Source: Parcubacteria group bacterium (lineage in GTDB: Bacteria > Patescibacteriota > Minisyncoccia > Phycocordibacterales > 21-14-all-47-15). From it: 64,000 bases of DNA. Below, in pieces: positions 3 to 49,981 of this stretch. Every line of letters starts with the position of its first letter. The stretch's first letter is position 1. A program made the translations under genes and the position numbers. The notes beneath the pieces are model-generated. The model searched no databases and had not been told where the DNA came from. It worked only from the letters and a program-made list of their open reading frames with translations. The stretch spans positions 33,133 through 97,132 of the forward strand of contig JACOYO010000001.1 in assembly GCA_016181845.1 (NCBI GenBank). The letters are read 5' to 3'.

Positions 3-410
3 TTGAAAAAAAATCCGAACGTCAAACTAATCAAGCCGAATATCAGCGGTCTTGATATCGTCGCGAAAGCAAAATTGATAATCACCATCACGAGCAGCGC
101 CGCATGGGAAGGAGTGATGTTAAAAAAACCGGCTATCGCGTTTGGCGATTGGTTTTATAATTTTCTCCCGATGGTGAAAAGATGCCGCAATATTGAAGAG
201 CTGCCTTCTTTGGTAAAAGAACAGCTTGAACATCACCAACACGATGAAGACGCTCTCTTGCTTTTCTTGGCGGCTATCTTTGAAGACTCCATATCCATAG
301 ACATGGTTCGCATCTGGGAACAGGAGCAGGATGAGGCAAAAAAGCGCGAGCTACTTGAACCGCTTGCGGATTTATTGGCAAAAAAGATTGGTTTGGGTTT
401 AATAAATTGA
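3..410 (+). CDS. C-terminal fragment of a capsule-polysaccharide-biosynthesis-like protein (KpsS/LpsZ-like family); 5' end cut by the window edge
   Basis: ORF runs from the window start with no upstream start codon. Family assignment by weak recall only; position in a polysaccharide locus. Confidence 0.35.
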   Translation: MKKNPNVKLIKPNISGLDIVAKAKLIITITSSAAWEGVMLKKPAIAFGDWFYNFLPMVKRCRNIEELPSLVKEQLEHHQHDEDALLLFLAAIFEDSISIDMVRIWEQEQDEAKKRELLEPLADLLAKKIGLGLIN

Positions 411-546
411 ATTACAAAACTCGCCGAAATCATAGTTTTTGAGAGACATTGCGGAGTGTCGCAACGCGAGCATAGCAAATTCTGCTCGCAAGCAGAATTA
501 TGCGCGTCTATCAAAAACTTATGATGAGGAAAGAGTTTTGTAATTA
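409..546. repeat. MITE-like intergenic repeat element, copy E1 (family also at 22994-23132, 31938-32168, 39235-39362)
   Basis: Shares the 5' module CATAGTTTTTGAGAGACATTGCGGAG and a 3' module ATGCGCGTCTATCAAAAAC..ATGATGAGGAA..GAGTTTTGTAATT with the other copies. Terminal inverted repeat ATTACAAAACTC / GAGTTTTGTAAT. Internal 9-bp hairpin AATTCTGCT-cgca-AGCAGAATT. Confidence 0.7.
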
Positions 547-563
547 AAAGTTAATACAAAAAA

Positions 564-4394: not shown

Positions 4395-5462
4395 CTAATC
4401 TATGCTAATACGTCTCCCTGGAGCAATCGAGGTGTGCAGTTCGGATTCTCGCTCGGCATGTTTTAAATCCGCTTCCGCCATCATTTGTGCCAATTTTTTA
4501 AAAGTAATTTTTGGTTTCCAACTCAAGACTTTCCGCGCTTTTCTTGGGTCTCCCAACAGTAAATCAACCTCGTTTGGTCTGAAATGTTTCGGGTCAATCT
4601 TGATAATAGTCTTGCCTGTTTTTCGGTCAACTCCCGTTTCTTTCAAGCCCCTGCCACGCCATACAATATCCATACCTAAATGATTCGCCGCCTCTTCGAC
4701 AAATTCCCGCACCGTGTGAGTCTCGCCGGTCGCAATCACGAAATCATCAGGCTTTTTGTGCTGTAAAATCTTCCATACAGCCTCCATATAATCTTTCGAG
4801 TATCCCCAGTCGCGTTTTGCATCAAGATTTCCAAGCATAAGCACCGGCTCAAGACCAAGCCTCACGCGCGACAAGCCAAGAGTGATTTTTCTTGTCACGA
4901 AATTAAATCCACGCCGCGGTGACTCGTGGTTAAAGAGAATCCCATTTGAAGCAAAGATGCCGTATCCATCACGAAAAATTTTTGTAATATGAAACGCAAA
5001 TACTTTTGAAAGCCCATACGGCGATTGAGGATTGAACTTGGTATTTTCATTTTGCGGAGTAGCGAGCACCTTGCCAAACATTTCAGAAGAGCTCGCCTGA
5101 TAGTATTTTGCCGGTAAATCAAAATTACGAATGGTTTCCAAAATGCGAAGTGGCCCGAGCGCATTCACATTCGCCGTATACTCCGGTTTATCAAAACTGA
5201 TTCGCACATGGCTTTGCGCCGCAAGGTTATAGATTTCATCCGGCTCTATTTTGTGAATAATACGGACCAAGTTAGAACTGTCAGATAAATCTCCGTATGC
5301 CATAAAAAGATTCGGGTCGGACAAATGGTCCAAGCGAATAGTATTCGGCATGCTTGAACGCCGCTGAATGCCATACACCTGGTATCCCTTCTCCAAAAGA
5401 AGCTCGGTCAAATATGAGCCGTCTTGTCCTGTTATGCCTGTGATTAATGCTTTTTTTGCCAT
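4395..5462 (-). CDS. gmd: GDP-mannose 4,6-dehydratase
   Basis: N-terminus ALITGITGQDGSYLTELLLEKGYQVYGI..RRSS and overall length ~355 aa match Gmd closely. Confidence 0.9.
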   Translation of the reverse strand: MAKKALITGITGQDGSYLTELLLEKGYQVYGIQRRSSMPNTIRLDHLSDPNLFMAYGDLSDSSNLVRIIHKIEPDEIYNLAAQSHVRISFDKPEYTANVNALGPLRILETIRNFDLPAKYYQASSSEMFGKVLATPQNENTKFNPQSPYGLSKVFAFHITKIFRDGYGIFASNGILFNHESPRRGFNFVTRKITLGLSRVRLGLEPVLMLGNLDAKRDWGYSKDYMEAVWKILQHKKPDDFVIATGETHTVREFVEEAANHLGMDIVWRGRGLKETGVDRKTGKTIIKIDPKHFRPNEVDLLLGDPRKARKVLSWKPKITFKKLAQMMAEADLKHAERESELHTSIAPGRRISID

Positions 5463-8094: not shown

Positions 8095-9895
8095 ATAAAT
8101 TATTATCCTGAAAAACTATGTTCGGCCCATGAAGTTCATTCAATATCTTTTGGGGTAATGTCCCTTGAGACACGATGTAGTCAAGACGATAGGTACGGAG
8201 CATGTCTTCAAGATTGATAGCCGCCAATCGCCGATATATGTCGGCAAAATTGCCTATGCGTTCGTCCAATGACCGGCTTACGAAATCGGGAAAATCTGAA
8301 ACACCATATAAATCTTTCCAATCTGAAAAAATAAAATCCCTCGCCTCCACTATATGCTCTTTTACATATTCTTCAATGTGGTCATCGGTAATACCCCGCA
8401 TGCGAAGCTGAACTGCGTAATTATAATATGACCGCTCAATCGGCATGAGTGAAAATGACCATGGGGAAGCATAAACGTCGCAATGGGTAAACGCCGGTAT
8501 CAAACCAATTATTACATATGGTTCTTTCTCATTCTCGTTGGCCAAAACAACGCAATTTTTTTCTTGTTCATCAAGCCACTTGAGCGTCGGCCAAAATAGC
8601 TGGAGATTCGCGTCGTATTGATAAAATCGATTGAACGTACCTGCTTGAATATATACGCCATACACTAGAGGAACAGCCACCGCAAAAAAAACACCGATTG
8701 CCCATATAGCCCGCAACTGATGCCTTACTATGCGATACCAAAGCACCATTAACACGATCATGGCGAGCGGGATAGAATACTGCACAAAATGATAGGGCCA
8801 GACCGTTTGTCCGGTGATAATCTGCTGGCTATATGCCCAGAGCGATCCCAAAATAAAAGCAAGGGTAAACAAATGCCAATCCTCTATAAACCCTGTTGTT
8901 TTTTGTTCTACTAACTTTGTGTTTTTTCTATCTCGTATAAATTGCCATCCTACAAAAACCGCATACACAATCAAAACCAGAAAGAGCAATTTGTTCATAA
9001 GCGGGTAATGTGTATAAAAAATACCATTCCGTAAAAGAGCTTCTGCGTACCATGGACTTTTGCTTGCTTGCCAAACAAGGTACCAATACGGAAGGGTCAT
9101 CAAAAAAGCATACCCCGCAAGAACTCCCATGCTTTTGACAATCGTATATTCTTTTTTAAGAACATACATCAGGGCAAGCATAACAAGAATGGATACTGCT
9201 ATCCCCCAGCTGAAAAAATAACTCCCCACCATCAGTGCAAGAAAAATAGCCGCGCTTAAAAGCGCTCTTTTGTGCGGTCTTTCGTTTCTTATATTCGCTA
9301 TCATACGCCACAGAGAACCGAGAAAAGCCATGAGCAGAAGCGCTCCTAAAACAGGGTTAATGGGCCGAGCCCAAATCAAGAAACCGGCTGGGCTTGCGGA
9401 ACCGCTAAGAAAAGCAAGAAGACTTCTGTAATCAATCAGGTCATAACCGAGAGTAACGAGCAACGCGCCGGCAATCGCATTGATTTTTGCAAAAAAGGAA
9501 TCATCGTCTTCAAAAAGTTTGAGTAGAAGCGCATAAACCAAAAGAAACAAAATGAGCGGTAAAAAAAATTGGCTCGCAACAATAACGGCGGCTGGTTTTA
9601 CTTCAAATAACATCGCTGGGACCGCATACAGCATTTCTCCAACCGGCGGGGCAAGAGGAGTTTGGTTTTTGTATTCATAGAAAGCCTGTGACCCAACGAG
9701 CGGATGCCCATCGAGAATTTCTTGTATTCTTGCTATATAAAAATCATCATTCGCCGTATGCATCATCGGTATTCCGCGATACTCATCTCCCAAAGATAGT
9801 ATGAAAAAGATATTTGGTGCTACGTAAACAAACCCCACAAACAACGCCACCAAAATAGCTATATGATGTTCTTTGAAATAATCTTTGATGCTCAT
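8072..9895 (-). CDS. Polytopic membrane protein, possible GT-C-type glycosyl transferase/polymerase (function unknown)
   Basis: More than 12 predicted transmembrane helices followed by a ~200-aa soluble C-terminal domain. Embedded in a glycan operon. Overlaps the flanking genes. Confidence 0.35.
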   Translation of the reverse strand: MSIKDYFKEHHIAILVALFVGFVYVAPNIFFILSLGDEYRGIPMMHTANDDFYIARIQEILDGHPLVGSQAFYEYKNQTPLAPPVGEMLYAVPAMLFEVKPAAVIVASQFFLPLILFLLVYALLLKLFEDDDSFFAKINAIAGALLVTLGYDLIDYRSLLAFLSGSASPAGFLIWARPINPVLGALLLMAFLGSLWRMIANIRNERPHKRALLSAAIFLALMVGSYFFSWGIAVSILVMLALMYVLKKEYTIVKSMGVLAGYAFLMTLPYWYLVWQASKSPWYAEALLRNGIFYTHYPLMNKLLFLVLIVYAVFVGWQFIRDRKNTKLVEQKTTGFIEDWHLFTLAFILGSLWAYSQQIITGQTVWPYHFVQYSIPLAMIVLMVLWYRIVRHQLRAIWAIGVFFAVAVPLVYGVYIQAGTFNRFYQYDANLQLFWPTLKWLDEQEKNCVVLANENEKEPYVIIGLIPAFTHCDVYASPWSFSLMPIERSYYNYAVQLRMRGITDDHIEEYVKEHIVEARDFIFSDWKDLYGVSDFPDFVSRSLDERIGNFADIYRRLAAINLEDMLRTYRLDYIVSQGTLPQKILNELHGPNIVFQDNNLFVYRFDK

Positions 9896-22976: not shown

Positions 22977-22993
22977 AAATAAGTAATGACGAA

Positions 22994-23132
22994 TTATGAA
23001 ATAGTATTTTTAGCAGAGCCTTGCGGACCCCGACAGTTATCGTCGTGGGAGCAGAGCATCCGCCCTGGGCGGAAGCATCCGCCCTGGGCGGAATGCGTGC
23101 TGTGCGAGAAATACTATTTCGTAATTTATAGT
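22994..23132. repeat. MITE-like intergenic repeat element, divergent copy E4, containing a 19-bp tandem duplication
   Basis: GAAATAGTATTTTTAGCAGAGCCTTGCGGA aligns with the E1-E3 5' module. (GCATCCGCCCTGGGCGGAA)x2 at 23056-23093 matches the E3 hairpin. Ends with the family terminus TTTCGTAATTTATAG. Confidence 0.6.
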
Positions 23133-28511: not shown

Positions 28512-29561
28512 TCATTTTTCTCTATTGAGAAGGTCGGTCATTTTTTTTATGACAGAGACGCCGCTGTGGTTTTGTATCACCAGAGACTGAAGCTCGCGGA
28601 GTTCATATTTTGAGGCCGTCTTGATTTCTAATATTTTTTGGACAATATAATCTGCGTTGGTATTCCGCAAAAGATGTTTTTCTGGCAACATTGCAAAAAA
28701 AGCTTCGTTTGAAGTGAGCACGTTAACCCCTGACGCCATCGCTTCAAGGACCGCCTTATCAAGACTTCCGGTTTCGCTCAAATTGATAAAGAGATCGCTT
28801 TTTTGATAAAAGGAGTGGATATCGGAATACGAAACCGCGCCAACAAAAAACACGCTGTCATCTATCCCCTTCGCTTGTATCTCTTTTTTTAATCGAATGA
28901 AATAGTCATAATCCGCATTTGTAATCGGCGCCCCGACAATTTTCATTTCAAAAGAAACGCCTTCTTTTTTCAAAAGTTCTGCCGCTTCAAGCATCATGTG
29001 AATATTTTTTGCCGGCGTAATTCTACTGACAGAAAGAATATTCAATTTTTCGTGCGGCCACTTGTCCACCGGATGAAAACGCTCCGTATCAATCCCATGT
29101 CCTACTACATGCACCTTGTCGCTTTTCAAACGAAAACTTTCTTTTGAGGCGGTAAAGATAATATCGGATAATTTTTCCGCGACGCGCAATTTCATATCAA
29201 CCTGTTTGTGCGTATACCATAGCGCAATTTTTTTAGACAAAAGTTTCCAAAACACACCTCCGAGCAAAATATATATCGGATTCATGTGCACGAAGACCGT
29301 ATCGTAATTTTTTTTCTCATTCCAGATATATCTATAAAACCTTGCGATATATCGAAAGGTTTTTATTACAGTGGCACCAGCAAATTCTTCTTTGCCGAGC
29401 GATAATACGGAAACATTCTGCGGCAAATGGTATTTGCCTTTTTGCAAACAAATAACCGTAACTTTTTCAGCATGCTTGGCAAATTCTTCAATCCACCGGA
29501 CAAAAAAACCGAGGTTGTCGTCCTGTTCGTCCACTTTTTGAGTTATGATAAGCAGTCGCAT
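28512..29561 (-). CDS. Glycosyltransferase family 1 (GT4); contains the 28-bp palindrome, copy A, in frame
   Basis: C-terminal GT-B domain (GSLDKAVLEAMASGVNVL); ~349 aa. The palindrome encodes KTFRYIARFY. Confidence 0.8.
   Translation of the reverse strand: MRLLIITQKVDEQDDNLGFFVRWIEEFAKHAEKVTVICLQKGKYHLPQNVSVLSLGKEEFAGATVIKTFRYIARFYRYIWNEKKNYDTVFVHMNPIYILLGGVFWKLLSKKIALWYTHKQVDMKLRVAEKLSDIIFTASKESFRLKSDKVHVVGHGIDTERFHPVDKWPHEKLNILSVSRITPAKNIHMMLEAAELLKKEGVSFEMKIVGAPITNADYDYFIRLKKEIQAKGIDDSVFFVGAVSYSDIHSFYQKSDLFINLSETGSLDKAVLEAMASGVNVLTSNEAFFAMLPEKHLLRNTNADYIVQKILEIKTASKYELRELQSLVIQNHSGVSVIKKMTDLLNREK
29334..29366. repeat. 28-bp near-perfect palindrome AAAACCTTGCGATATATCGAAAGGTTTT (copy A), inside the GT4 CDS
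   Basis: Same palindrome at 42936-42966 and 49363-49393. Confidence 0.85.
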
Positions 29562-29567
29562 AAAAAA

Positions 29568-30677
29568 TTACAAATAAATAGCGCATGACTCCCACTGTTT
29601 TTTATATACCCGAAGATACTCTTCTTTTGAAATTTCATTTGATGCGCGTGTGAATCGCCCGCCGCTTGAAAGAGCCGCTGACAACGAGTCCGCGAGGCAG
29701 ATGGAATTGCCGACAGAGCATATAAAAACACCATCTCCTGAAACGACATCTCCCGCAATCCCCACATCAGTGGTTACTATGGGCAACCCTGCCCTATACG
29801 CCTCCACAAGCGAGAGCCCGTATCCTTCATAAAATGATGTGTGAAGATACACGTCGGCGGCGGCATAATAAGATGCAATTTCTTTTTGAGAGCCGACAAA
29901 TATAGCGCTGTCTTCCAATTTGAGATTTGAGATTTGGGACTTGAGATTTTTTCTCTCGCTTCCGTCACCAACAACAAGAAGCCCAGCTTTGGGATATGTT
30001 TTAATAATTTTTTCAAACACCTCAATCGCACGGGCAACATTTTTTTCCGGCTCAAGTCGCGAGACAACAAGAACGATTTTTTCAAACTGTGGAAACTCTG
30101 CGCGGACACGGCTGCCGTCCGCATTTTTGAATTTTTGAACATCGGTGAAAATCGGCAGTACGGCAATCGGCGCATTGGTGAATCCACTGATAGATTTTTT
30201 AATTCGCTCCGACACCACGCGGACACAATCGGCTTTGGGCAATAAAAATTTCGCAACCATCACCCGAATTTTATTTTTGATATTTTCCGCGGCAAAATAG
30301 TGGCTCATGAAATCGGTATGTACCTGCAGCTCAAGCCGCGCGCCAAGAGCGCGCGAGACGCGCCATCCGGCAAAACCGGTTTCAAACGGGTTTTGGCAAG
30401 TAACCAGGAAATCATGAGTCATGAATAATGAATCATGATTGATGCGCTTCGCGATTTTGTATGCGTCAAAAATATACAGCCAGCGGCTCAAAGAATTTGT
30501 GGAATAAATGAAAACATTGTCTGAAATCTTGATTCTTGATTCTTGATTCTTGATTCTTGCGCGGAAAATTATAATATGCAATTCTTCACACAATCTTCCA
30601 TACTCAATCATCCTCGCGCGCACCGCCGAGTCTTTTTCAAAAATTTTTGAATCAGTTGATAGCATTAGTACTCTCAT
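29568..30677 (-). CDS. Glycosyltransferase family 1 (GT4), paralogue 1 of a tandem pair, with two heptanucleotide tracts
   Basis: GT-B C-terminal domain (YGLSLVEAYRAGLPIVTT). Shares the peptide ERKNLKSQISNLKLE with the next gene. Confidence 0.8.
   Translation of the reverse strand: MRVLMLSTDSKIFEKDSAVRARMIEYGRLCEELHIIIFRARIKNQESRIKISDNVFIYSTNSLSRWLYIFDAYKIAKRINHDSLFMTHDFLVTCQNPFETGFAGWRVSRALGARLELQVHTDFMSHYFAAENIKNKIRVMVAKFLLPKADCVRVVSERIKKSISGFTNAPIAVLPIFTDVQKFKNADGSRVRAEFPQFEKIVLVVSRLEPEKNVARAIEVFEKIIKTYPKAGLLVVGDGSERKNLKSQISNLKLEDSAIFVGSQKEIASYYAAADVYLHTSFYEGYGLSLVEAYRAGLPIVTTDVGIAGDVVSGDGVFICSVGNSICLADSLSAALSSGGRFTRASNEISKEEYLRVYKKQWESCAIYL
29918..29952. repeat. Heptanucleotide repeat (GAGATTT)n, interrupted (gagattt gagattt gggactt gagattt), in GT4 paralogue 1
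   Basis: Coding strand AAATCTC units encode ..KSQISNLK.. in frame. One unit is degenerated by synonymous changes. Confidence 0.8.
30528..30560. repeat. Heptanucleotide repeat (TCTTGAT)x4.7 in GT4 paralogue 1
   Basis: Four perfect units plus a partial unit. Coding strand (AGAATCA)n encodes RIKNQESRIKIS. Confidence 0.85.
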
Positions 30678-31837
30678 AGTTGTTTAAAAAATTGAGTTAA
30701 ATTCTCAAGCATTTTTTCTTTTGAAAATCCCGCCGCTTTTTCACGCGCCGATTTTTCAAAACGCTGGCGCGCCACTGTCACATCCGCCAGTATTTCAATG
30801 ATTGCTTCTGCAAGAGCTTTTTTATCTTGATGCGTCACCAACCGCCCTGAAACGCTGTCTTCAATCAATTCAGAATTTCCGCCTACACGGGTCGTAACCA
30901 CGGGCACTCCCAAAGCCATCGCCTCAAGAATAGTGTGCGACAACCCTTCGTATCCGGTATTTAGCACGAATACATCCGCCACCATTAAATAAAGCATAGT
31001 GTCGTCGTGCGACAATTGCCCGATTAAGAATACGCTATTCTCCAATTTGAGATTTGAGATTTGAGATTTGAGATTCTTTCTTTCCGGCCCATCTCCGATA
31101 ATGTAGAGTTTTGCCTGCGGATATTTTTTTACTATTTCAGAAAACATTTCTATTAATGTTTCAAATCCTTTCCACGAAACAAGCCGCCCGATAGACACTA
31201 GTATCTCTCCTGGCCAGTCCCGCCCTTCAACGCGAGCCGGGGCGGACAAAAGAAGTCTCGCGCGAGCTTCATCGTGAGTGATATTTTGTTTCGGTAATTC
31301 AAACGCGTTATAGATAACTTCTACTTTTTCTGGAGCAACCCCCCATCCGTACACAATAATTTTTTTCAAATATTCGCTCGGCACAACTATCTTGTCCGCA
31401 TAGCGCGCCACATATTTTTGTATAGACCTACGCATTTCAATCCCAAGAGAATATTTTTTTCCCTGAAATTCATCCAACAAATCATATTCCTGATTTCTGA
31501 TTCCTGATTCCTGATTCACATATTCTTCCCACGCGCGGTCTCCTACAATTTTTACCACAAATTTTTTACCAAGTATTTTGGCGGCGCACAATGCGGGCAA
31601 GCCGACACCGAGCGGGTCTTGCGCGAAAATAATACCCGCCTCGGCTCCAGCGCGAAGCAGTTTGAAAAAATAAAAAAGATGTTTTACGCCAAAAGGCCAT
31701 TTTTTTACATCGCTCAATTTCACCACGGCAACCTGAAACCCACGGAGCGAGAGCTCGCGTTCCAAAAGAGCGGTGTATGTGGCCGGTCCGCCGATTTCGG
31801 GCGGATAGAGCGGTGTAGCAATAAGTATTTTTTGCAT
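30674..31837 (-). CDS. Glycosyltransferase family 1 (GT4), paralogue 2 of the tandem pair, with two heptanucleotide tracts
   Basis: GT-B C-terminal domain (YEGLSHTILEAMALGVPVVTT). Start taken at MQKILIATPLYPPEIGG; the ORF track extends to 31870 through a palindromic site. Confidence 0.8.
   Translation of the reverse strand: MQKILIATPLYPPEIGGPATYTALLERELSLRGFQVAVVKLSDVKKWPFGVKHLFYFFKLLRAGAEAGIIFAQDPLGVGLPALCAAKILGKKFVVKIVGDRAWEEYVNQESGIRNQEYDLLDEFQGKKYSLGIEMRRSIQKYVARYADKIVVPSEYLKKIIVYGWGVAPEKVEVIYNAFELPKQNITHDEARARLLLSAPARVEGRDWPGEILVSIGRLVSWKGFETLIEMFSEIVKKYPQAKLYIIGDGPERKNLKSQISNLKLENSVFLIGQLSHDDTMLYLMVADVFVLNTGYEGLSHTILEAMALGVPVVTTRVGGNSELIEDSVSGRLVTHQDKKALAEAIIEILADVTVARQRFEKSAREKAAGFSKEKMLENLTQFFKQL
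31049..31076. repeat. Heptanucleotide repeat (GAGATTT)x3 plus GAGATTC in GT4 paralogue 2
   Basis: Four tandem units. Coding strand (AAATCTC)n encodes NLKSQISNLK in frame. Confidence 0.85.
31489..31516. repeat. Heptanucleotide repeat (CCTGATT)x4, one imperfect, in GT4 paralogue 2
   Basis: Reads cctgatt tctgatt cctgatt cctgatt. Coding strand (GAATCAG)n encodes NQESGIRNQE. Confidence 0.8.
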
Positions 31838-31846
31838 AAGTTTATA

Positions 31847-31869
31847 TGTTGGACATCGGATGTCCAACA
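31847..31869. promoter_or_regulatory. 23-bp perfect palindrome TGTTGGACATC-G-GATGTCCAACA, ~10 nt upstream of the GT4 paralogue 2 start codon
   Basis: Perfect dyad symmetry. Positioned over the expected RBS / 5'UTR. Confidence 0.5.
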
Positions 31870-31902
31870 ATATCGTATGTTTTACTTAACCATCTTCAAC
31901 TT

Positions 31903-31937
31903 CCAAACTGTTGGACATCCGATGTCCAACAGTTTGG
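31903..31937. promoter_or_regulatory. 35-bp perfect palindrome CCAAACTGTTGGACATC-C-GATGTCCAACAGTTTGG, second copy of the same dyad core
   Basis: Shares the core TGTTGGACATC N GATGTCCAACA with the site 34 bp downstream. Abuts the E2 repeat. Confidence 0.5.
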
Positions 31938-32168
31938 AAGAAACTCGCTCTCTATCATAGTTTTTGAGAGACATTGCGGAGCCCACAGGCGAGCATAGCA
32001 AATCCTGCTCGCAAGCAGGTTCTGAAGCGAATATTTGAAGCTTCAGAAAACCTTTTGAGAATTTTTGCAAGTTTTGCGAAGTAAAAAATCCAAAAGGTGT
32101 ACTAATCCTGTAAGGATTATGCGCGTCTATCAAAAACTCATGATGAGGAAGAGTTTCGTAATTCATAG
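31938..32168. repeat. MITE-like intergenic repeat element, copy E2 (longest copy, ~230 bp)
   Basis: 5' module CTATCATAGTTTTTGAGAGACATTGCGGAGCCCACAGGCGAGCATAGCA. Hairpin AATCCTGCT-cgca-AGCAGGTT. About 100 bp of extra internal hairpins. 3' module ATGCGCGTCTATCAAAAACTCATGATGAGGAAGAGTTTCGTAATTCATAG. The 94-aa ORF 31882-32166 within it is treated as spurious. Confidence 0.7.
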
Positions 32169-33371
32169 TAAAGCAAACATTCGCTCAAAAACTTTTTCTT
32201 TCATTTGTTTAGCTATTATGTTCCAATCATATTTTTCTAGAACCATAGCCCGAGCATTCGCACTAATTTTTTCTTTCAATGCTTTATCTTCCATAAGCCG
32301 CTTCACTTGCACGGCAACGCTTTCTGGGTTATCCACCTCGCAAAAAAGCCCCGTCCCTTCGTCTTTCAAAAAGTCGGTAATGCCGCCAACTGGAGTACCA
32401 ATCACCGGCAACCCAGCCGCCATCGCTTCAATAAATGAGTTCCCCATGCCTTCTGAACGTGACGGGCGTACAAAAATATCAGCGATACTTAAATAACGAG
32501 GCACTTCGGCGCTATCCACCGATTTTATAAAAACGATTCGCTCCGACACGTGCTCTCTTTGAGCAAGCGCACGAAGGAACGCTTCATCCGGCCCTGCCCC
32601 CACAACAAGAAATTTCACATGTGAAGGCAAAAACGCGAGTGAGCGAATGACATCATCAACAGCGTTCTTGTGTACCAGGCGCGACGTGGTGATAAGCAAT
32701 ATATCATAACTAGAAAATCCGAGGGTGGCGCGCGCGTTCTGTCTCTCTTCTTTTGAAACATTTTGAGAAAATAGCGCCACATCAACGCCGTTTGGGATAA
32801 CTTCAGTGTGGCTTCTATACTTCATTGTCTTTTTTGCGAATACTTCAATCAAAAATGTGGAGATACCCTGAATGATGTCGGCTCGGTCAAAAATTTCTTG
32901 AAACCACCCACGCGCAAAACGCACGCGCCGCAAAATATGTGCTATCGGGTCACCCTCCTGCAAAGCCAGCACAAATGGCACATGAGGAAACTTCTTTTTG
33001 AAAAAAAGAGCGGCAAATCCGGCGTAATTTGCCATGATAGACCACACGGCATCATACGGATTCTCCCGATGCAGTTTTTTTGCGTATAGCGCCGCCAAAA
33101 AAGGAAATAAATATTTATTGATAGACAGAGGAAACCGAATTACCATATCTTTTACGGAACCTTTTTTTAATTCCGTAAATCCGATTCGGTGGACATTCAC
33201 GTTTCCAATTCTTTCATACCGCGGCAAATCAGAACTCAACCGGAGCGTGATCATATCAAACAGAAAATCCGGAAGCCGGTCCGTAATATTTCGCACCGCG
33301 ACTTCCGCTCCGCCCACAAACGGCTCGTACATGAGAGAAAATATTAAAATTCTTTTTTTATTTTTTTCCAT
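32163..33371 (-). CDS. Glycosyltransferase family 1 (GT4)
   Basis: GT-B C-terminal motif SRSEGMGNSFIEAMAAGLPVIGT; ~400 aa. Confidence 0.8.
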   Translation of the reverse strand: MEKNKKRILIFSLMYEPFVGGAEVAVRNITDRLPDFLFDMITLRLSSDLPRYERIGNVNVHRIGFTELKKGSVKDMVIRFPLSINKYLFPFLAALYAKKLHRENPYDAVWSIMANYAGFAALFFKKKFPHVPFVLALQEGDPIAHILRRVRFARGWFQEIFDRADIIQGISTFLIEVFAKKTMKYRSHTEVIPNGVDVALFSQNVSKEERQNARATLGFSSYDILLITTSRLVHKNAVDDVIRSLAFLPSHVKFLVVGAGPDEAFLRALAQREHVSERIVFIKSVDSAEVPRYLSIADIFVRPSRSEGMGNSFIEAMAAGLPVIGTPVGGITDFLKDEGTGLFCEVDNPESVAVQVKRLMEDKALKEKISANARAMVLEKYDWNIIAKQMKEKVFERMFALL

Positions 33372-39182: not shown

Positions 39183-39234
39183 TATCTCTATAGTATCGTA
39201 ATAGACCGATAAGAGCGAGCGGTTAATGTGTTTG

Positions 39235-39362
39235 AATTACGAAACTCGCCCTGAATCATAGTTTTTGAGAGACATTGCGGAGCCCACAGGCAAGCATAGC
39301 ATCCGCCCTGGGCGGAATGCGTGTCTTTCAAAAACCAACGATGAAGCAGAGAAATACAACCG
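39235..39362. repeat. MITE-like intergenic repeat element, copy E3
   Basis: GAATTACGAAACTCGCCCTGAATCATAGTTTTTGAGAGACATTGCGGAGCCCACAGG 5' module. GC-rich hairpin CATCCGCCC-tgg-GCGGAATG. 3' module ATGCGTGTCTTTCAAAAAC..ATGAAGCAGAG. The 94-aa ORF 39188-39472 is treated as spurious. Confidence 0.7.
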
Positions 39363-40709: not shown

Positions 40710-40750
40710 GAAATATCGATGTTATTTTTAATTTCGCCAATGAACAGCGA

Positions 40751-40802
40751 AACTAAGAGCCTGTTCATAATCTAATACTAACTGCGTTTAGATTATGAAC
40801 AG
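40751..40802. repeat. Inverted-repeat unit AACTAAGAGCCTGTTCATAATCTAA-tact-AACTGCGTTTAGATTATGAACAG (hairpin), downstream of pit
   Basis: Same unit occurs twice in inverted orientation upstream of the phoU-like gene (42619-42644 and 42786-42812). Confidence 0.7.
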
Positions 40803-40961
40803 TTTCCAACAAGCCCGATATTCATCAATGATTATGTATGCTGTATAGCATTTTTCTATTATTTTGTCAAATCGCTCGGCCGTTATATATAAAAGAAAAG
40901 CCCTGCCATTGAAATACAATAGCAGAGCTTGGAAATAAAACTTTTTTATATTGCCAGCAAA

Positions 40962-42602: not shown

Positions 42603-42618
42603 TGCGCGCCTCCATTTA

Positions 42619-42812
42619 GAGCCTGTTCATAATCTAAACGCAGTCAGTATAAGACTAGACAATCGCTTGCCTGCCGAAATATTCAAAATTCTGCTGCAAA
42701 TTGCATATTTTTCGTCAGCGTATCTTGATATGCTTCCTCAAAATCCGCAATTTTCGCAACGAATTTTGAACATTCCGCCTAGGCATTAGATTATGAACAG
42801 GCTCTTAGTTTT
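42619..42812. repeat. Pair of perfect 19-bp inverted repeats (GAGCCTGTTCATAATCTAA ... TTAGATTATGAACAGGCTC) flanking 141 bp upstream of the phoU-pit operon
   Basis: Left arm 42619-42644 is extended by ACGCAGT. Right arm 42786-42812 is extended by TTAGTTTTTT. Same unit as at 40751-40802. Confidence 0.7.
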
Positions 42813-42935: not shown

Positions 42936-42966
42936 TAAAAACCTTTCGATATATCGAAAGGTTTTA
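42936..42966. repeat. 28-bp perfect palindrome AAAACCTTTCGATATATCGAAAGGTTTT (copy B), intergenic
   Basis: Perfect dyad. Copies at 29334-29366 and 49363-49393 differ only by T to G at one position. Confidence 0.85.
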
Positions 42967-43002
42967 TGGGTAAAAAATTTGCTACGCGAAAGCAAAGTGA
43001 CT

Positions 43003-49192: not shown

Positions 49193-49981
49193 ATGCAAGA
49201 AAAGAGAAGGGAAAAGAAAAAAATGCGGTGGAGAAAACAAAAACGCCAAGCCAGCTCTTTTTGGGAAAAAGAATATAAGAGCGGCGAGCATTTGGCTCTC
49301 TCGACAAGCGCGAGCGAAGACCTGCAAAAATTCACGCGGTGGCTTTCGCGCGAAAATGATAATAAAACCTTGCGATATATCGAAAGGTTTTTACCAGTAA
49401 ATAAATACTCGACGACAAAAGCATCCGTTGCTGATTTAGGCACCGGCAATGGGAGAAATCTTATATACCTTGCAGAAACGTTCGGCATGAAAGGCACTGG
49501 ATTTGATATTTCCCGCGAGGCGATTGAACAGGCAAAAATCGCGAGCAAAAACAAAAATTTGCCGCTTGAATTTTTCGTGCGCTCAATCGCGGAGCCAATT
49601 CCACTGCCCGATAATTCACAAGACATCGTCCTTGATATGATGACCTCGCATTTTTTAAACAACTCCGAGCGAGCGATCCTCCTTTCCGAAATCGCGCGCA
49701 TTTTGAAACCGGGCGGCTTTCTTTTTTTCAAAACATTTCTTCTTGATGAGGATATTCACGCGGCGCGTCTTTTGCGCGAGCACCCAGCGGGAGAACCGGG
49801 CTCATACATTCACCCTGAAATCGGCAAAGCCGAGCATGTATTCACCGAAAATGAAATCGTTGCTCTCTTTTCTCACTATTTCACGATACGAAAAATTACC
49901 AAATCGCACCGCCACAAAATCAAAGGACATGCCGCCAAACGCAGAAGCATTTCCGTATACGCAGAAAAAGAAATCCGTTAA
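49193..49981 (+). CDS. Class I SAM-dependent methyltransferase; contains the 28-bp palindrome, copy C, in frame
   Basis: ADLGTGNGRNLIYLAE motif I, ILKPGGFLFFKTF. Start uncertain (Lys/Arg-rich N-terminus). The palindrome encodes KTLRYIERFL. Confidence 0.65.
   Translation: MQEKRREKKKMRWRKQKRQASSFWEKEYKSGEHLALSTSASEDLQKFTRWLSRENDNKTLRYIERFLPVNKYSTTKASVADLGTGNGRNLIYLAETFGMKGTGFDISREAIEQAKIASKNKNLPLEFFVRSIAEPIPLPDNSQDIVLDMMTSHFLNNSERAILLSEIARILKPGGFLFFKTFLLDEDIHAARLLREHPAGEPGSYIHPEIGKAEHVFTENEIVALFSHYFTIRKITKSHRHKIKGHAAKRRSISVYAEKEIR
49363..49393. repeat. 28-bp near-perfect palindrome AAAACCTTGCGATATATCGAAAGGTTTT (copy C), inside the methyltransferase CDS
   Basis: Identical to copy A. Flanking sequence is unrelated. 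Confidence 0.85.

Follow-up and report, generated by a model that had tools for sequence, protein, structure and literature searches.

What are the short repeats that recur between the genes of a glycan locus in a member of the Parcubacteria group? We analyzed a 64,000-nt stretch of contig JACOYO010000001.1 (positions 33,133 to 97,132; hereafter the window), which comes from a metagenome-assembled genome of this group that is close to Candidatus Lloydbacteria. A preliminary description of this DNA had listed four plus-strand copies of a repeat with conserved end modules and a central hairpin, and had left open whether they are miniature transposable elements with inverted repeats (MITEs) or structured RNAs. 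We found that each copy is a long imperfect palindrome of 75-230 nt centered on a conserved 68-nt three-way junction. The copies belong to an apparently undescribed repeat family that is restricted to Patescibacteria, the candidate phyla radiation (CPR), and spans several of its classes. We lean toward the view that the elements are non-autonomous selfish palindromic DNA repeats, MITE-like and most similar to the Rickettsia palindromic elements (RPEs), with a conserved folded core that is recognized in trans.

Copies of the repeat in the window

Module searches, shuffles, a covariance model and folding z-scores bear out the existence and placement of the four reported copies. The covariance-model search, which the preliminary description had suggested, added a degenerate fifth copy on the minus strand. 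The parts of the core follow one order: helix P1, junction strand J12 (ATTGCGGAG), helix P2, junction strand J23 (GAGCAKAGCA), helix P3, ATGCGYG (J31 is ATGCGY, after which P1' follows) and P1'. The copies and their parts are as follows.

408..547, plus strand: copy 1, a complete element (minimum free energy, MFE, -54.5 kcal/mol; z -8.45)
408-422 and 533-545: terminal inverted repeat of copy 1, 15 and 13 nt (TGAATTACAAAACTC and GAGTTTTGTAATT); farther in, a conserved 8x8 internal loop and then a second stem, CATAGTTTTTGAGAGAC / GTCTATCAAAAACTTATG
441..512, plus strand: three-way-junction core of copy 1 (covariance model 63.7 bits, E 1e-19), with P1 GAGAGAC/GTCTATC, J12 ATTGCGGAG, P2 GTGT-CGCA-ACGC, J23 GAGCATAGCA, P3 AATTCTGCT-CGCA-AGCAGAATT and J31 ATGCGC
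22991..23132, plus strand: copy 2, of a divergent subfamily (40.4 bits, z -10.5), with outer arms AATTATGAAATAGTATTTTTAGCAGAGC / GCTGTGCGAGAAATACTATTTCGTAATT
23013-23105: core of copy 2, with the C-G variant of a J12-J23 pair (CTTGCGGAC...GAGCAGAGCA) and an enlarged P2
about 23055-23093: P3 hairpin of copy 2 (GCATCCGCCCTGGGCGGAA), duplicated in tandem
31938..32165, plus strand: copy 3, with its left terminal repeat truncated and adjoining two 19-nt palindromes
31966-32021: 5' part of the copy 3 core, namely P1, J12, P2 GCC-CACA-GGC, J23 and P3
32022-32103: extra hairpins of copy 3, about 82 nt
32104-32118: final hairpin of copy 3
32119-32131: J31 and P1' of copy 3, followed by the right arm
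32151-32165: right terminal repeat of copy 3, GAGTTTCGTAATTCA
39233..39362, plus strand: copy 4, with its left terminal repeat (TGAATTACGAAACTC) intact and its right end degenerate (57.0 bits)
39267-39329: core of copy 4, with the P2 of copy 3 and the P3 of copy 2 (TCCGCC-CTG-GGCGGA)
42616..42811, minus strand: hairpin repeat that holds copy 5 (z -7.4)
42658-42784, minus strand: copy 5, a degenerate 127-nt palindromic insertion nested in this hairpin repeat
42695-42758, minus strand: core-like region of copy 5 (16.7 bits, E 0.005)

The 26-nt 5' module occurs exactly three times in the window and not at all in dinucleotide shuffles. The 19-nt 3' module, with up to two mismatches, also occurs three times (shuffle mean 0.04). 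A degenerate core pattern built from the motifs common to all four plus-strand copies matched exactly those four and nothing in shuffles. These copies scored 63.7, 57.0, 40.4 and 27.3 bits against the covariance model. Copies 1, 2 and 4 have MFEs of -54.5, -77.9 and -42.2 kcal/mol (z -8.5, -10.5 and -4.6), and copy 3 folds at -85.1 kcal/mol.

The 5' and 3' modules had been presented as conserved ends common to all four copies. Three copies carry them; the copy at 22994 shares only the junction motifs CTTGCGGAC, GAGCAGAGCA and ATGCGTG. The modules are in fact not independent ends but the two complementary arms of one long stem, and between them they supply the outer stem, the conserved 8x8 internal loop, the second stem and the junction strands. 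What is conserved is the central three-way junction, not transposon-like ends, and the outer arms vary by lineage and locus. Other reported details are present: the terminal inverted repeat of copy 1, which measures 13-15 nt; a 19-nt tandem duplication, in the copy at 22994; and about 100 extra bases, in the copy at 31938.

The ends of the copies meet neighboring genes and repeats closely. The TGA stop of the open reading frame (ORF) at 3..410, upstream of copy 1, falls within the left repeat of that copy, and the right terminal repeat of copy 3 provides the TGA stop of the minus-strand glycosyltransferase (GT) gene at 32163..33371, of family GT4. The flanks that abut copy 2 (AAGTAATGA / TAGTAATAA) are identical at 7 of 9 positions. 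Directly upstream of copy 3, a perfect 19-nt palindrome, TTGGACATCSGATGTCCAA, occurs twice, 62 nt apart (31849-31867 and 31911-31929). These palindromes stand where copy 3 lacks its left repeat, and they may be traces of another small element whose arrival truncated the copy. A Logan contig from the same genome as the window (SRR12113430_76649, locus L080) ends about 46 nt past the GT4 gene at 32163-33371, inside copy 3, which indicates that the repeat family breaks short-read assemblies.

Pairing and covariation in the core fold

We aligned 42 distinct cores from the window and other genomes using MAFFT alone, with no structure fitting. P1 is a 7-bp helix, typically GAAAAAC / GTTTTTC (GAGAGAC / GTCTATC in the window). 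P2 has 4 bp and mostly a GNCG tetraloop. P3 has 7 bp, and in 20 of 52 copies its tetraloop is AGCA. Segments of J12 and J23 pair with each other (UUGC with GCAU). In this helix the first pair (A8-U41) is A-U in 39 and C-G in 3 of the 42 aligned copies, and it is never mixed; copy 2 of the window also has the C-G version.

Standard pairs fill 96.7% of the alignment cells, and double changes occur at 17 of 25 pairs. The covariation score was 0.553, compared with 0.160 in shuffles, and none of 500 shuffles reached it. Pairing fell to 25-55% when the 3' partners were shifted by 1 to 3 columns. P3 is 98.5% paired, with double changes at 9 of 10 pairs. The statistics for P2 come from this MAFFT-based alignment; in the covariance model P2 is out of register. 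About 26 junction nucleotides are near-invariant, the unpaired strands are nearly constant across Patescibacteria, and sequence conservation extends to the helical segments TTGC/GCAT and GCA/TGC.

Certain P1 positions are conserved as non-Watson-Crick pairs. Loci L039, L064 and L032 (GCGAAGC / GCTGAGC) have tandem G-A/A-G pairs, and the P1 of window copies 1 and 3 has a single G-A; positions of this kind are kept across genomes, not repaired.

Outside P1 the stem continues for 10-35 further pairs, which differ by subfamily or lineage and even by locus. The window-type arm reads TGAATTACRAAACTC - GYCGAAAT - CATAGTTTTT on the left, with an imperfect complement on the right, and the terminal inverted repeats of this subfamily are TGAATTACRAAACTC / GAGTTTYGTAATTCA. 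In other subfamilies the arms are different. A second one, to which both Saccharibacteria copies belong, begins with AGCGA and finishes with GAGCG.

The family is restricted to Patescibacteria

A scan of one genome per species, covering 185,579 species, returned 30 loci. Ten of these are true members, all from Patescibacteria: nine carry the labels Paceibacterota, Minisyncoccia, Campbellbacteria, Kaiserbacteria, Parcubacteria, Saccharibacteria or "Patescibacteria group", and one is labeled only "bacterium". The remaining 20 are chance matches, 17 of them in Lachnospiraceae-type coding sequence (Acetatifactor, Bacteroidales, Odoribacter and "uncultured bacterium" included). In a metagenome scan, 42 of 49 loci were true, several of them from Hainich groundwater assemblies. 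True members lie in Patescibacteria genomes or on metagenome contigs with typical bacterial housekeeping genes. These searches recovered 52 distinct cores, and the covariance model gave 63 matches in 366 kb of related DNA, including copies that text patterns had missed. Species representatives usually hold one exact-pattern match, even on a 702-kb contig.

No copies were present in the IMG/VR, phage and plasmid records searched. Rfam gave no match in the window at gathering score, and with E-value limits of 10 or 1 it gave nothing at the element positions examined, namely copy 1 of the window and eight loci from other subfamilies. Full-text searches of the literature turned up no account of a comparable element from CPR bacteria.

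Copies inside housekeeping genes

Some copies lie within genes. In a locus from Minisyncoccia (L005), the element is inserted in frame and free of stop codons in a UvrD/PcrA helicase gene and in the adjacent KsgA/RsmA gene, and the insertions add LKSIAEADGPSIAISQQGNMCGFQ to both proteins. Fmt (L066) and TsaD (P0167) also contain in-frame copies. All in-gene copies are in sense orientation and in the same frame. By hand translation, the core consensus is open in five of its six frames, and stop codons therefore cannot account for the restriction. The in-gene copies are flanked by inverted rather than direct repeats. We considered their removal by intron-like RNA excision and rejected it because all are in frame and stop-free across diverged lineages. 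An exhaustive peptide-profile search returned 38 representatives, of which most were spurious short ORFs, so either only a minority of copies lie in genes or this approach detects them poorly.

KsgA homologs from related lineages (249 to 344 amino acids) have an insertion at exactly the same site or none at all. The homolog most similar in alignment to the L005 protein (P0005, 78%) is without it. The copies at this site in L005, L084, L086 and L087 all have intact cores, with differences in P2 and P3 that are fully compensated. Their outer arms are exact reverse-complement pairs that are lineage-specific and encode KIIKN/IFNNF, KIMRN/IPHYF and IILKD/ILQDY. Intact cores combined with differing arm peptides indicate that the nucleic-acid fold is better conserved than the peptide.

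In other genomes, these KsgA and UvrD/PcrA sites hold a second conserved type, a sister of the canonical element that encodes ERTLGRSDGDGQ. It retains the arms and P3, and its junction strands are different. The sister sequence (CTTGGKAGGAGCGACGGCGACGG...; L081 526-593 and L085 about 590-690) is translated as ERTLGRSDGDGQ(R/K)(E/K)FSAEN. A 23-nt motif is identical in L081 and L085, that is, in the UvrD/PcrA gene of one genome and the KsgA gene of another, which argues for a sister family and not a random decay product. The L081 UvrD/PcrA copy belongs to this type; it scores 19.6 bits against the canonical core model, and its P1 and P2 are unpaired.

Filled and empty sites, and exchange between copies

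Sites with and without the element exist both between paralogs and between homologs. In the window, the hairpin repeat at 42616-42811 has arms identical to those of an uninterrupted repeat and is itself interrupted by the 127-nt copy 5.

40750..40809, plus strand: empty paralog of the hairpin repeat, with a 15-bp stem, a 12-nt loop and a single TAATCTAAT

Copy 5 is flanked by 9-nt direct repeats, TAATCTAAT (42785-42793) and TAGTCTTAT (42649-42657), which match at 7 of 9 positions. Target-site duplications had been proposed as a sign to look for in the preliminary description. Copy 5 has a candidate for one, and a family-wide scan for 9-bp duplications was only weakly positive, with 41% of cases reaching 7/9 matches compared with 26% of shifted controls. 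The second filled and empty pair is at the KsgA site: L081 and L005 are syntenic, with nucleotide identity of about 79%, and the L081 site is empty and unstructured (-0.5 kcal/mol).

Copies also exchange parts. The two L005 copies have identical 68-nt cores and unrelated outer arms. The ortholog of copy 4 in a close relative (L083; the helicases fall in the same 90% cluster) lies at the same position in the same orientation, with shared flanks and junction strands, but has a wholly different P2 and P3. In the window, the P2 of copy 4 is that of copy 3 and its P3 is that of copy 2. Because the swapped hairpins match paralogs, much of the covariation between copies reflects module exchange and not stepwise compensatory mutation. 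The central hairpin variants in the window are as first described, with pairing preserved, but whole modules were swapped. The identity of cores and modules within a genome, set against the differences between orthologs, points to copy-to-copy gene conversion that homogenizes the cores. Whole-hairpin exchange would then represent gene conversion or recombination among copies.

Several loci contain adjacent, tandem, inverted or nested copies: L028 (1942-2009 and 2034-2102), L033 (4320-4391, minus, and 4442-4508, plus), L045 (8407-8472, minus, and 8552-8620, plus), L062 (548-615, with a second start about 25 nt later) and the KsgA gene of P0043. These arrangements may reflect insertion beside or within copies already present, or else local duplication.

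Genomic context and orientation

The window copies are 7-22 kb apart among ordinary operon genes. Their flanking genes encode an FkbM methyltransferase, a GT2, a PMT_2 (GT-C), two GT4 enzymes, a PAP2 protein and a DEAD helicase, so the earlier statement that three copies adjoin GT genes is roughly right. The elements are not a duplicated untranslated region (UTR) of one gene family, a possibility that the preliminary description had raised, because these genes are unrelated and intact. Elsewhere copies adjoin housekeeping genes, among them recA and genes for ribosomal proteins. When we clustered neighboring genes from 43 loci, no cluster occurred in more than three loci, and those that recurred were housekeeping genes. 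No long ORF is specific to the element, and no protein gene accompanies the family. Copies 1 and 4 were scanned for sigma-70-like promoters and intrinsic terminators, and none were found; a promoter candidate, TTGAAT-N18-CATAGT, was discarded with only 8 of 12 matches.

All copies had been described as lying in the same orientation. This is the case for four of the five in the window, and orientations are mixed in other genomes. Relative to neighboring ORFs across all loci, about 11 copies are sense, 12 antisense, 9 convergent and 6 divergent, and relative to local GC skew the split is 18 against 27 (p 0.23, not significant). Given this mixture and the minus-strand fifth copy, the orientation that the four copies share is best regarded as coincidence. 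The GC skew of the window is negative in every 4-kb bin (-0.02 to -0.13), which places the whole window on one replichore; most of its genes are on the minus strand.

Two other repeats were noted in the window. A 32-nt palindrome, ATAAAACCTTGCGATATATCGAAAGGTTTTTA, occurs at 29334-29365, 42936-42967 and 49362-49393; two copies are identical and the third is 84% identical, and the repeat resembles repetitive extragenic palindromic (REP) sequences or terminators. An 82-nt direct repeat (74% identical) lies at 29893-29974 and 31020-31101 in two adjacent minus-strand ORFs (29568..30677 and the GT4 gene at 30674..31870). It holds a heptamer run (TTTGAGA / GAGATTT) and could be a paralogous coding repeat that is possibly prone to slippage.

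Comparison with known elements

We compared the family with known repeats and folded nucleic acids. RPEs are palindromic, non-autonomous elements of roughly 100-150 nt that lie in frame in unrelated housekeeping genes, are translated as extra peptide loops and have no transposase (PMC10969869). The family described here is likewise a set of palindromic, non-autonomous repeats in the reduced genomes of host-dependent bacteria, found both between genes and in frame within them, and without a transposase. Its in-frame, stop-free insertions lie in UvrD/PcrA, KsgA, Fmt and TsaD. It differs from RPEs in that most copies are intergenic, a branched 68-nt core is shared across classes, the arms are specific to lineage or locus, and hairpin modules are exchanged. 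Because the hosts are Patescibacteria, another phylum, the likeness is a functional analogy, one of behavior, and not membership.

MITEs derived from insertion sequences (ISs), such as Correia/CREE, ERIC, RUP and MITEAba12, resemble the family in their small size, terminal inverted repeats, dispersed multi-copy occurrence and overlap with gene ends. Stable stem-loop transcripts, occasional intragenic copies and one filled and empty pair with a 9-bp direct repeat are further points of likeness. Here, however, the center is conserved and the termini vary, the arms are sometimes locus-specific, target-site duplications are not general, and no partner IS with matching ends is visible.

In concept the family also resembles REP/REPIN sequences with their RAYTs, attC sites and IS200/IS605 elements, in which a folded single strand is recognized, stems covary, a few unpaired bases are fixed, and copy number is high without a linked gene. 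REP sequences are 20-40 nt long and have a GTAG/CGTC foot. The elements here are 75-230 nt long and branched, and P1 starts with a G/T-AAAAAC-like sequence, with no GTAG/CGTC tetranucleotide. attC sites carry R''/R' boxes (RYYYAAC / GTTRRRY) at the stem foot, have a variable terminal structure and lie in cassette arrays beside intI. P1 in our family often ends in AAC / GTT, but the purine and pyrimidine runs are reversed; it is the terminal branched part that is conserved here, whereas in attC it is the stem foot, and there are no cassette arrays. No gene for a RAYT, IntI or TnpA was seen in the DNA examined, and no ORF recurred in the 43 loci.

Hammerhead ribozymes and purine-type riboswitch aptamers share with the core a length of about 70 nt, three covarying helices and highly conserved junction strands. 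There is no similarity to them in sequence or by covariance model. The elements, unlike these RNAs, have no fixed position or orientation relative to genes and occur inside translated sequence.

Evaluation of possible explanations

We consider a selfish origin the most probable account, with moderate confidence. The choice between a MITE and a structured RNA, as first posed, has narrowed toward a selfish element acting at the DNA level and is not settled; the repeats are a true multi-copy, non-coding, palindromic and MITE-like family with insertion polymorphism. Under this account, the junction strands (ATTGCGGAG, GAGCAKAGCA and ATGCGYG) and the preferred loops (GNCG on P2 and AGCA on P3) would form a recognition surface. 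An enzyme encoded in trans would act on the folded single strand of nucleic acid, as RAYT does on REP, IntI on attC and TnpA on IS200/IS605 ends. If only foldable copies propagated or served as donors for conversion, this filter would yield covariation without any host function. The pairing of the long stems could be maintained by templated correction from arm to arm.

Several findings weigh against a selfish element. Neither the window nor 88 loci yielded a transposase or a cognate IS with matching ends, which the preliminary description had suggested looking for. The terminal repeat is present at element ends only, and on this ground we rejected it as an IS end. A target-site duplication is seen for one degenerate copy only, and the conservation of the center with variable ends is the reverse of IS-derived MITEs. 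The four KsgA-site lineages are only about 65-72% identical in protein, yet their folds are intact within coding sequence, and this maintenance exceeds what neutral selfish DNA would predict. There is also a strand bias. In the core, G-U pairs exceed A-C pairs on the plus strand by 18 to 5; in the outer arms the G-T to A-C count of 25 to 16 is suggestive only (p 0.21), and in the KsgA arms G-U outnumbers A-C by 6 to 1. In 48 of 52 copies folding favors the plus strand, with a mean difference of 5.7 kcal/mol, although the shared core makes these copies non-independent. These modest signals hint that the element functions as one strand whose polarity is fixed, and that strand could be RNA.

A structured RNA with a host function is the main rival, and we regard it as rather unlikely. 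The elements would be a multi-copy three-way-junction module, for example a platform to which a Patescibacteria-specific protein or RNase binds in order to control the processing or stability of operon mRNAs, or small RNAs, with the outer stem serving only to present the module. The near-invariant junction strands, the covariation of all three helices and the preferred loops (AGCA in 20 of 52 P3 loops, GNCG in most P2 loops) fit such a role, as do copies inside highly expressed operons beside ribosomal protein genes and recA. Two things keep this explanation alive: the G-U bias, and a fold that is strongly maintained where copies have long resided in genes, as at the orthologous KsgA site, where the peptide changes. 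The orientation of copies relative to flanking genes is nevertheless random, the two copies scanned have no promoter- or terminator-like signal, and Rfam has no match. In L081 the UvrD/PcrA copy lacks a canonical P1 and P2, and the gene is not visibly harmed; in-frame, stop-free copies show read-through as protein; and the G-U excess is modest and comes from non-independent copies. A small self-cleaving ribozyme or retrozyme-like element, with the junction as catalytic core and spread through an RNA intermediate, appears very improbable. The architecture is typical of one, with a three-way junction in which about 26 nucleotides are conserved and helices that covary freely, and the plus-strand pairing signals are weakly in its favor. 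No hammerhead, twister, pistol, hatchet, hepatitis delta virus (HDV)-like or other Rfam model matched even at E up to 10, however, and no reverse transcriptase gene lies nearby. Active ribozymes would also destroy the UvrD/PcrA, KsgA, Fmt and TsaD mRNAs that contain in-frame copies.

At the DNA level, the core might instead bind a chromosomal protein for nucleoid organization, replication, repair or DNA uptake, like some REP/BIME or uptake sequences. Copies in both orientations and in both intergenic and genic positions, the conserved TTGC/GCAT and GCA/TGC segments, which suggest sequence-specific recognition, and the Patescibacteria-specific distribution are all compatible with this role. We nonetheless think it improbable: copies are sparse in most genomes, orientation shows no bias relative to GC skew, and the filled and empty polymorphism and nested copies look parasitic. 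Chance similarity, or a paralogous UTR duplicated with one gene family, would account only for the clustering of copies in the glycan locus, and its likelihood is negligible in view of the zero matches expected from shuffles, the unrelated flanking genes and the dozens of homologous copies beside different genes in other Patescibacteria.

One further possibility concerns the junction itself. We tentatively propose, as an idea with a small but real chance of being correct, that the 68-nt junction is a functional module of an undescribed kind, either the recognition fold of a structure-guided mobilization or homing system or a class of ribozyme or protein-binding RNA. Such a module would be specific to Patescibacteria, maintained in essential genes and copied by directed conversion rather than by ordinary transposition.

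Among bacteria, Patescibacteria have some of the most streamlined genomes, and the usual description is that they contain few repeats and little mobile DNA. A family that spans several of their classes and lies in frame in essential genes indicates that selfish or structural DNA persists even in streamlined genomes. It also provides a second, independent case of the "protein-coding palindrome" phenomenon of Rickettsia. The 68-nt fold, with its near-invariant nucleotides, is directly testable for catalysis, protein binding and recombination. If the junction is the substrate of an as yet undiscovered enzyme, it would represent a new structure-guided transaction of DNA or RNA in a large uncultivated branch of the bacteria.

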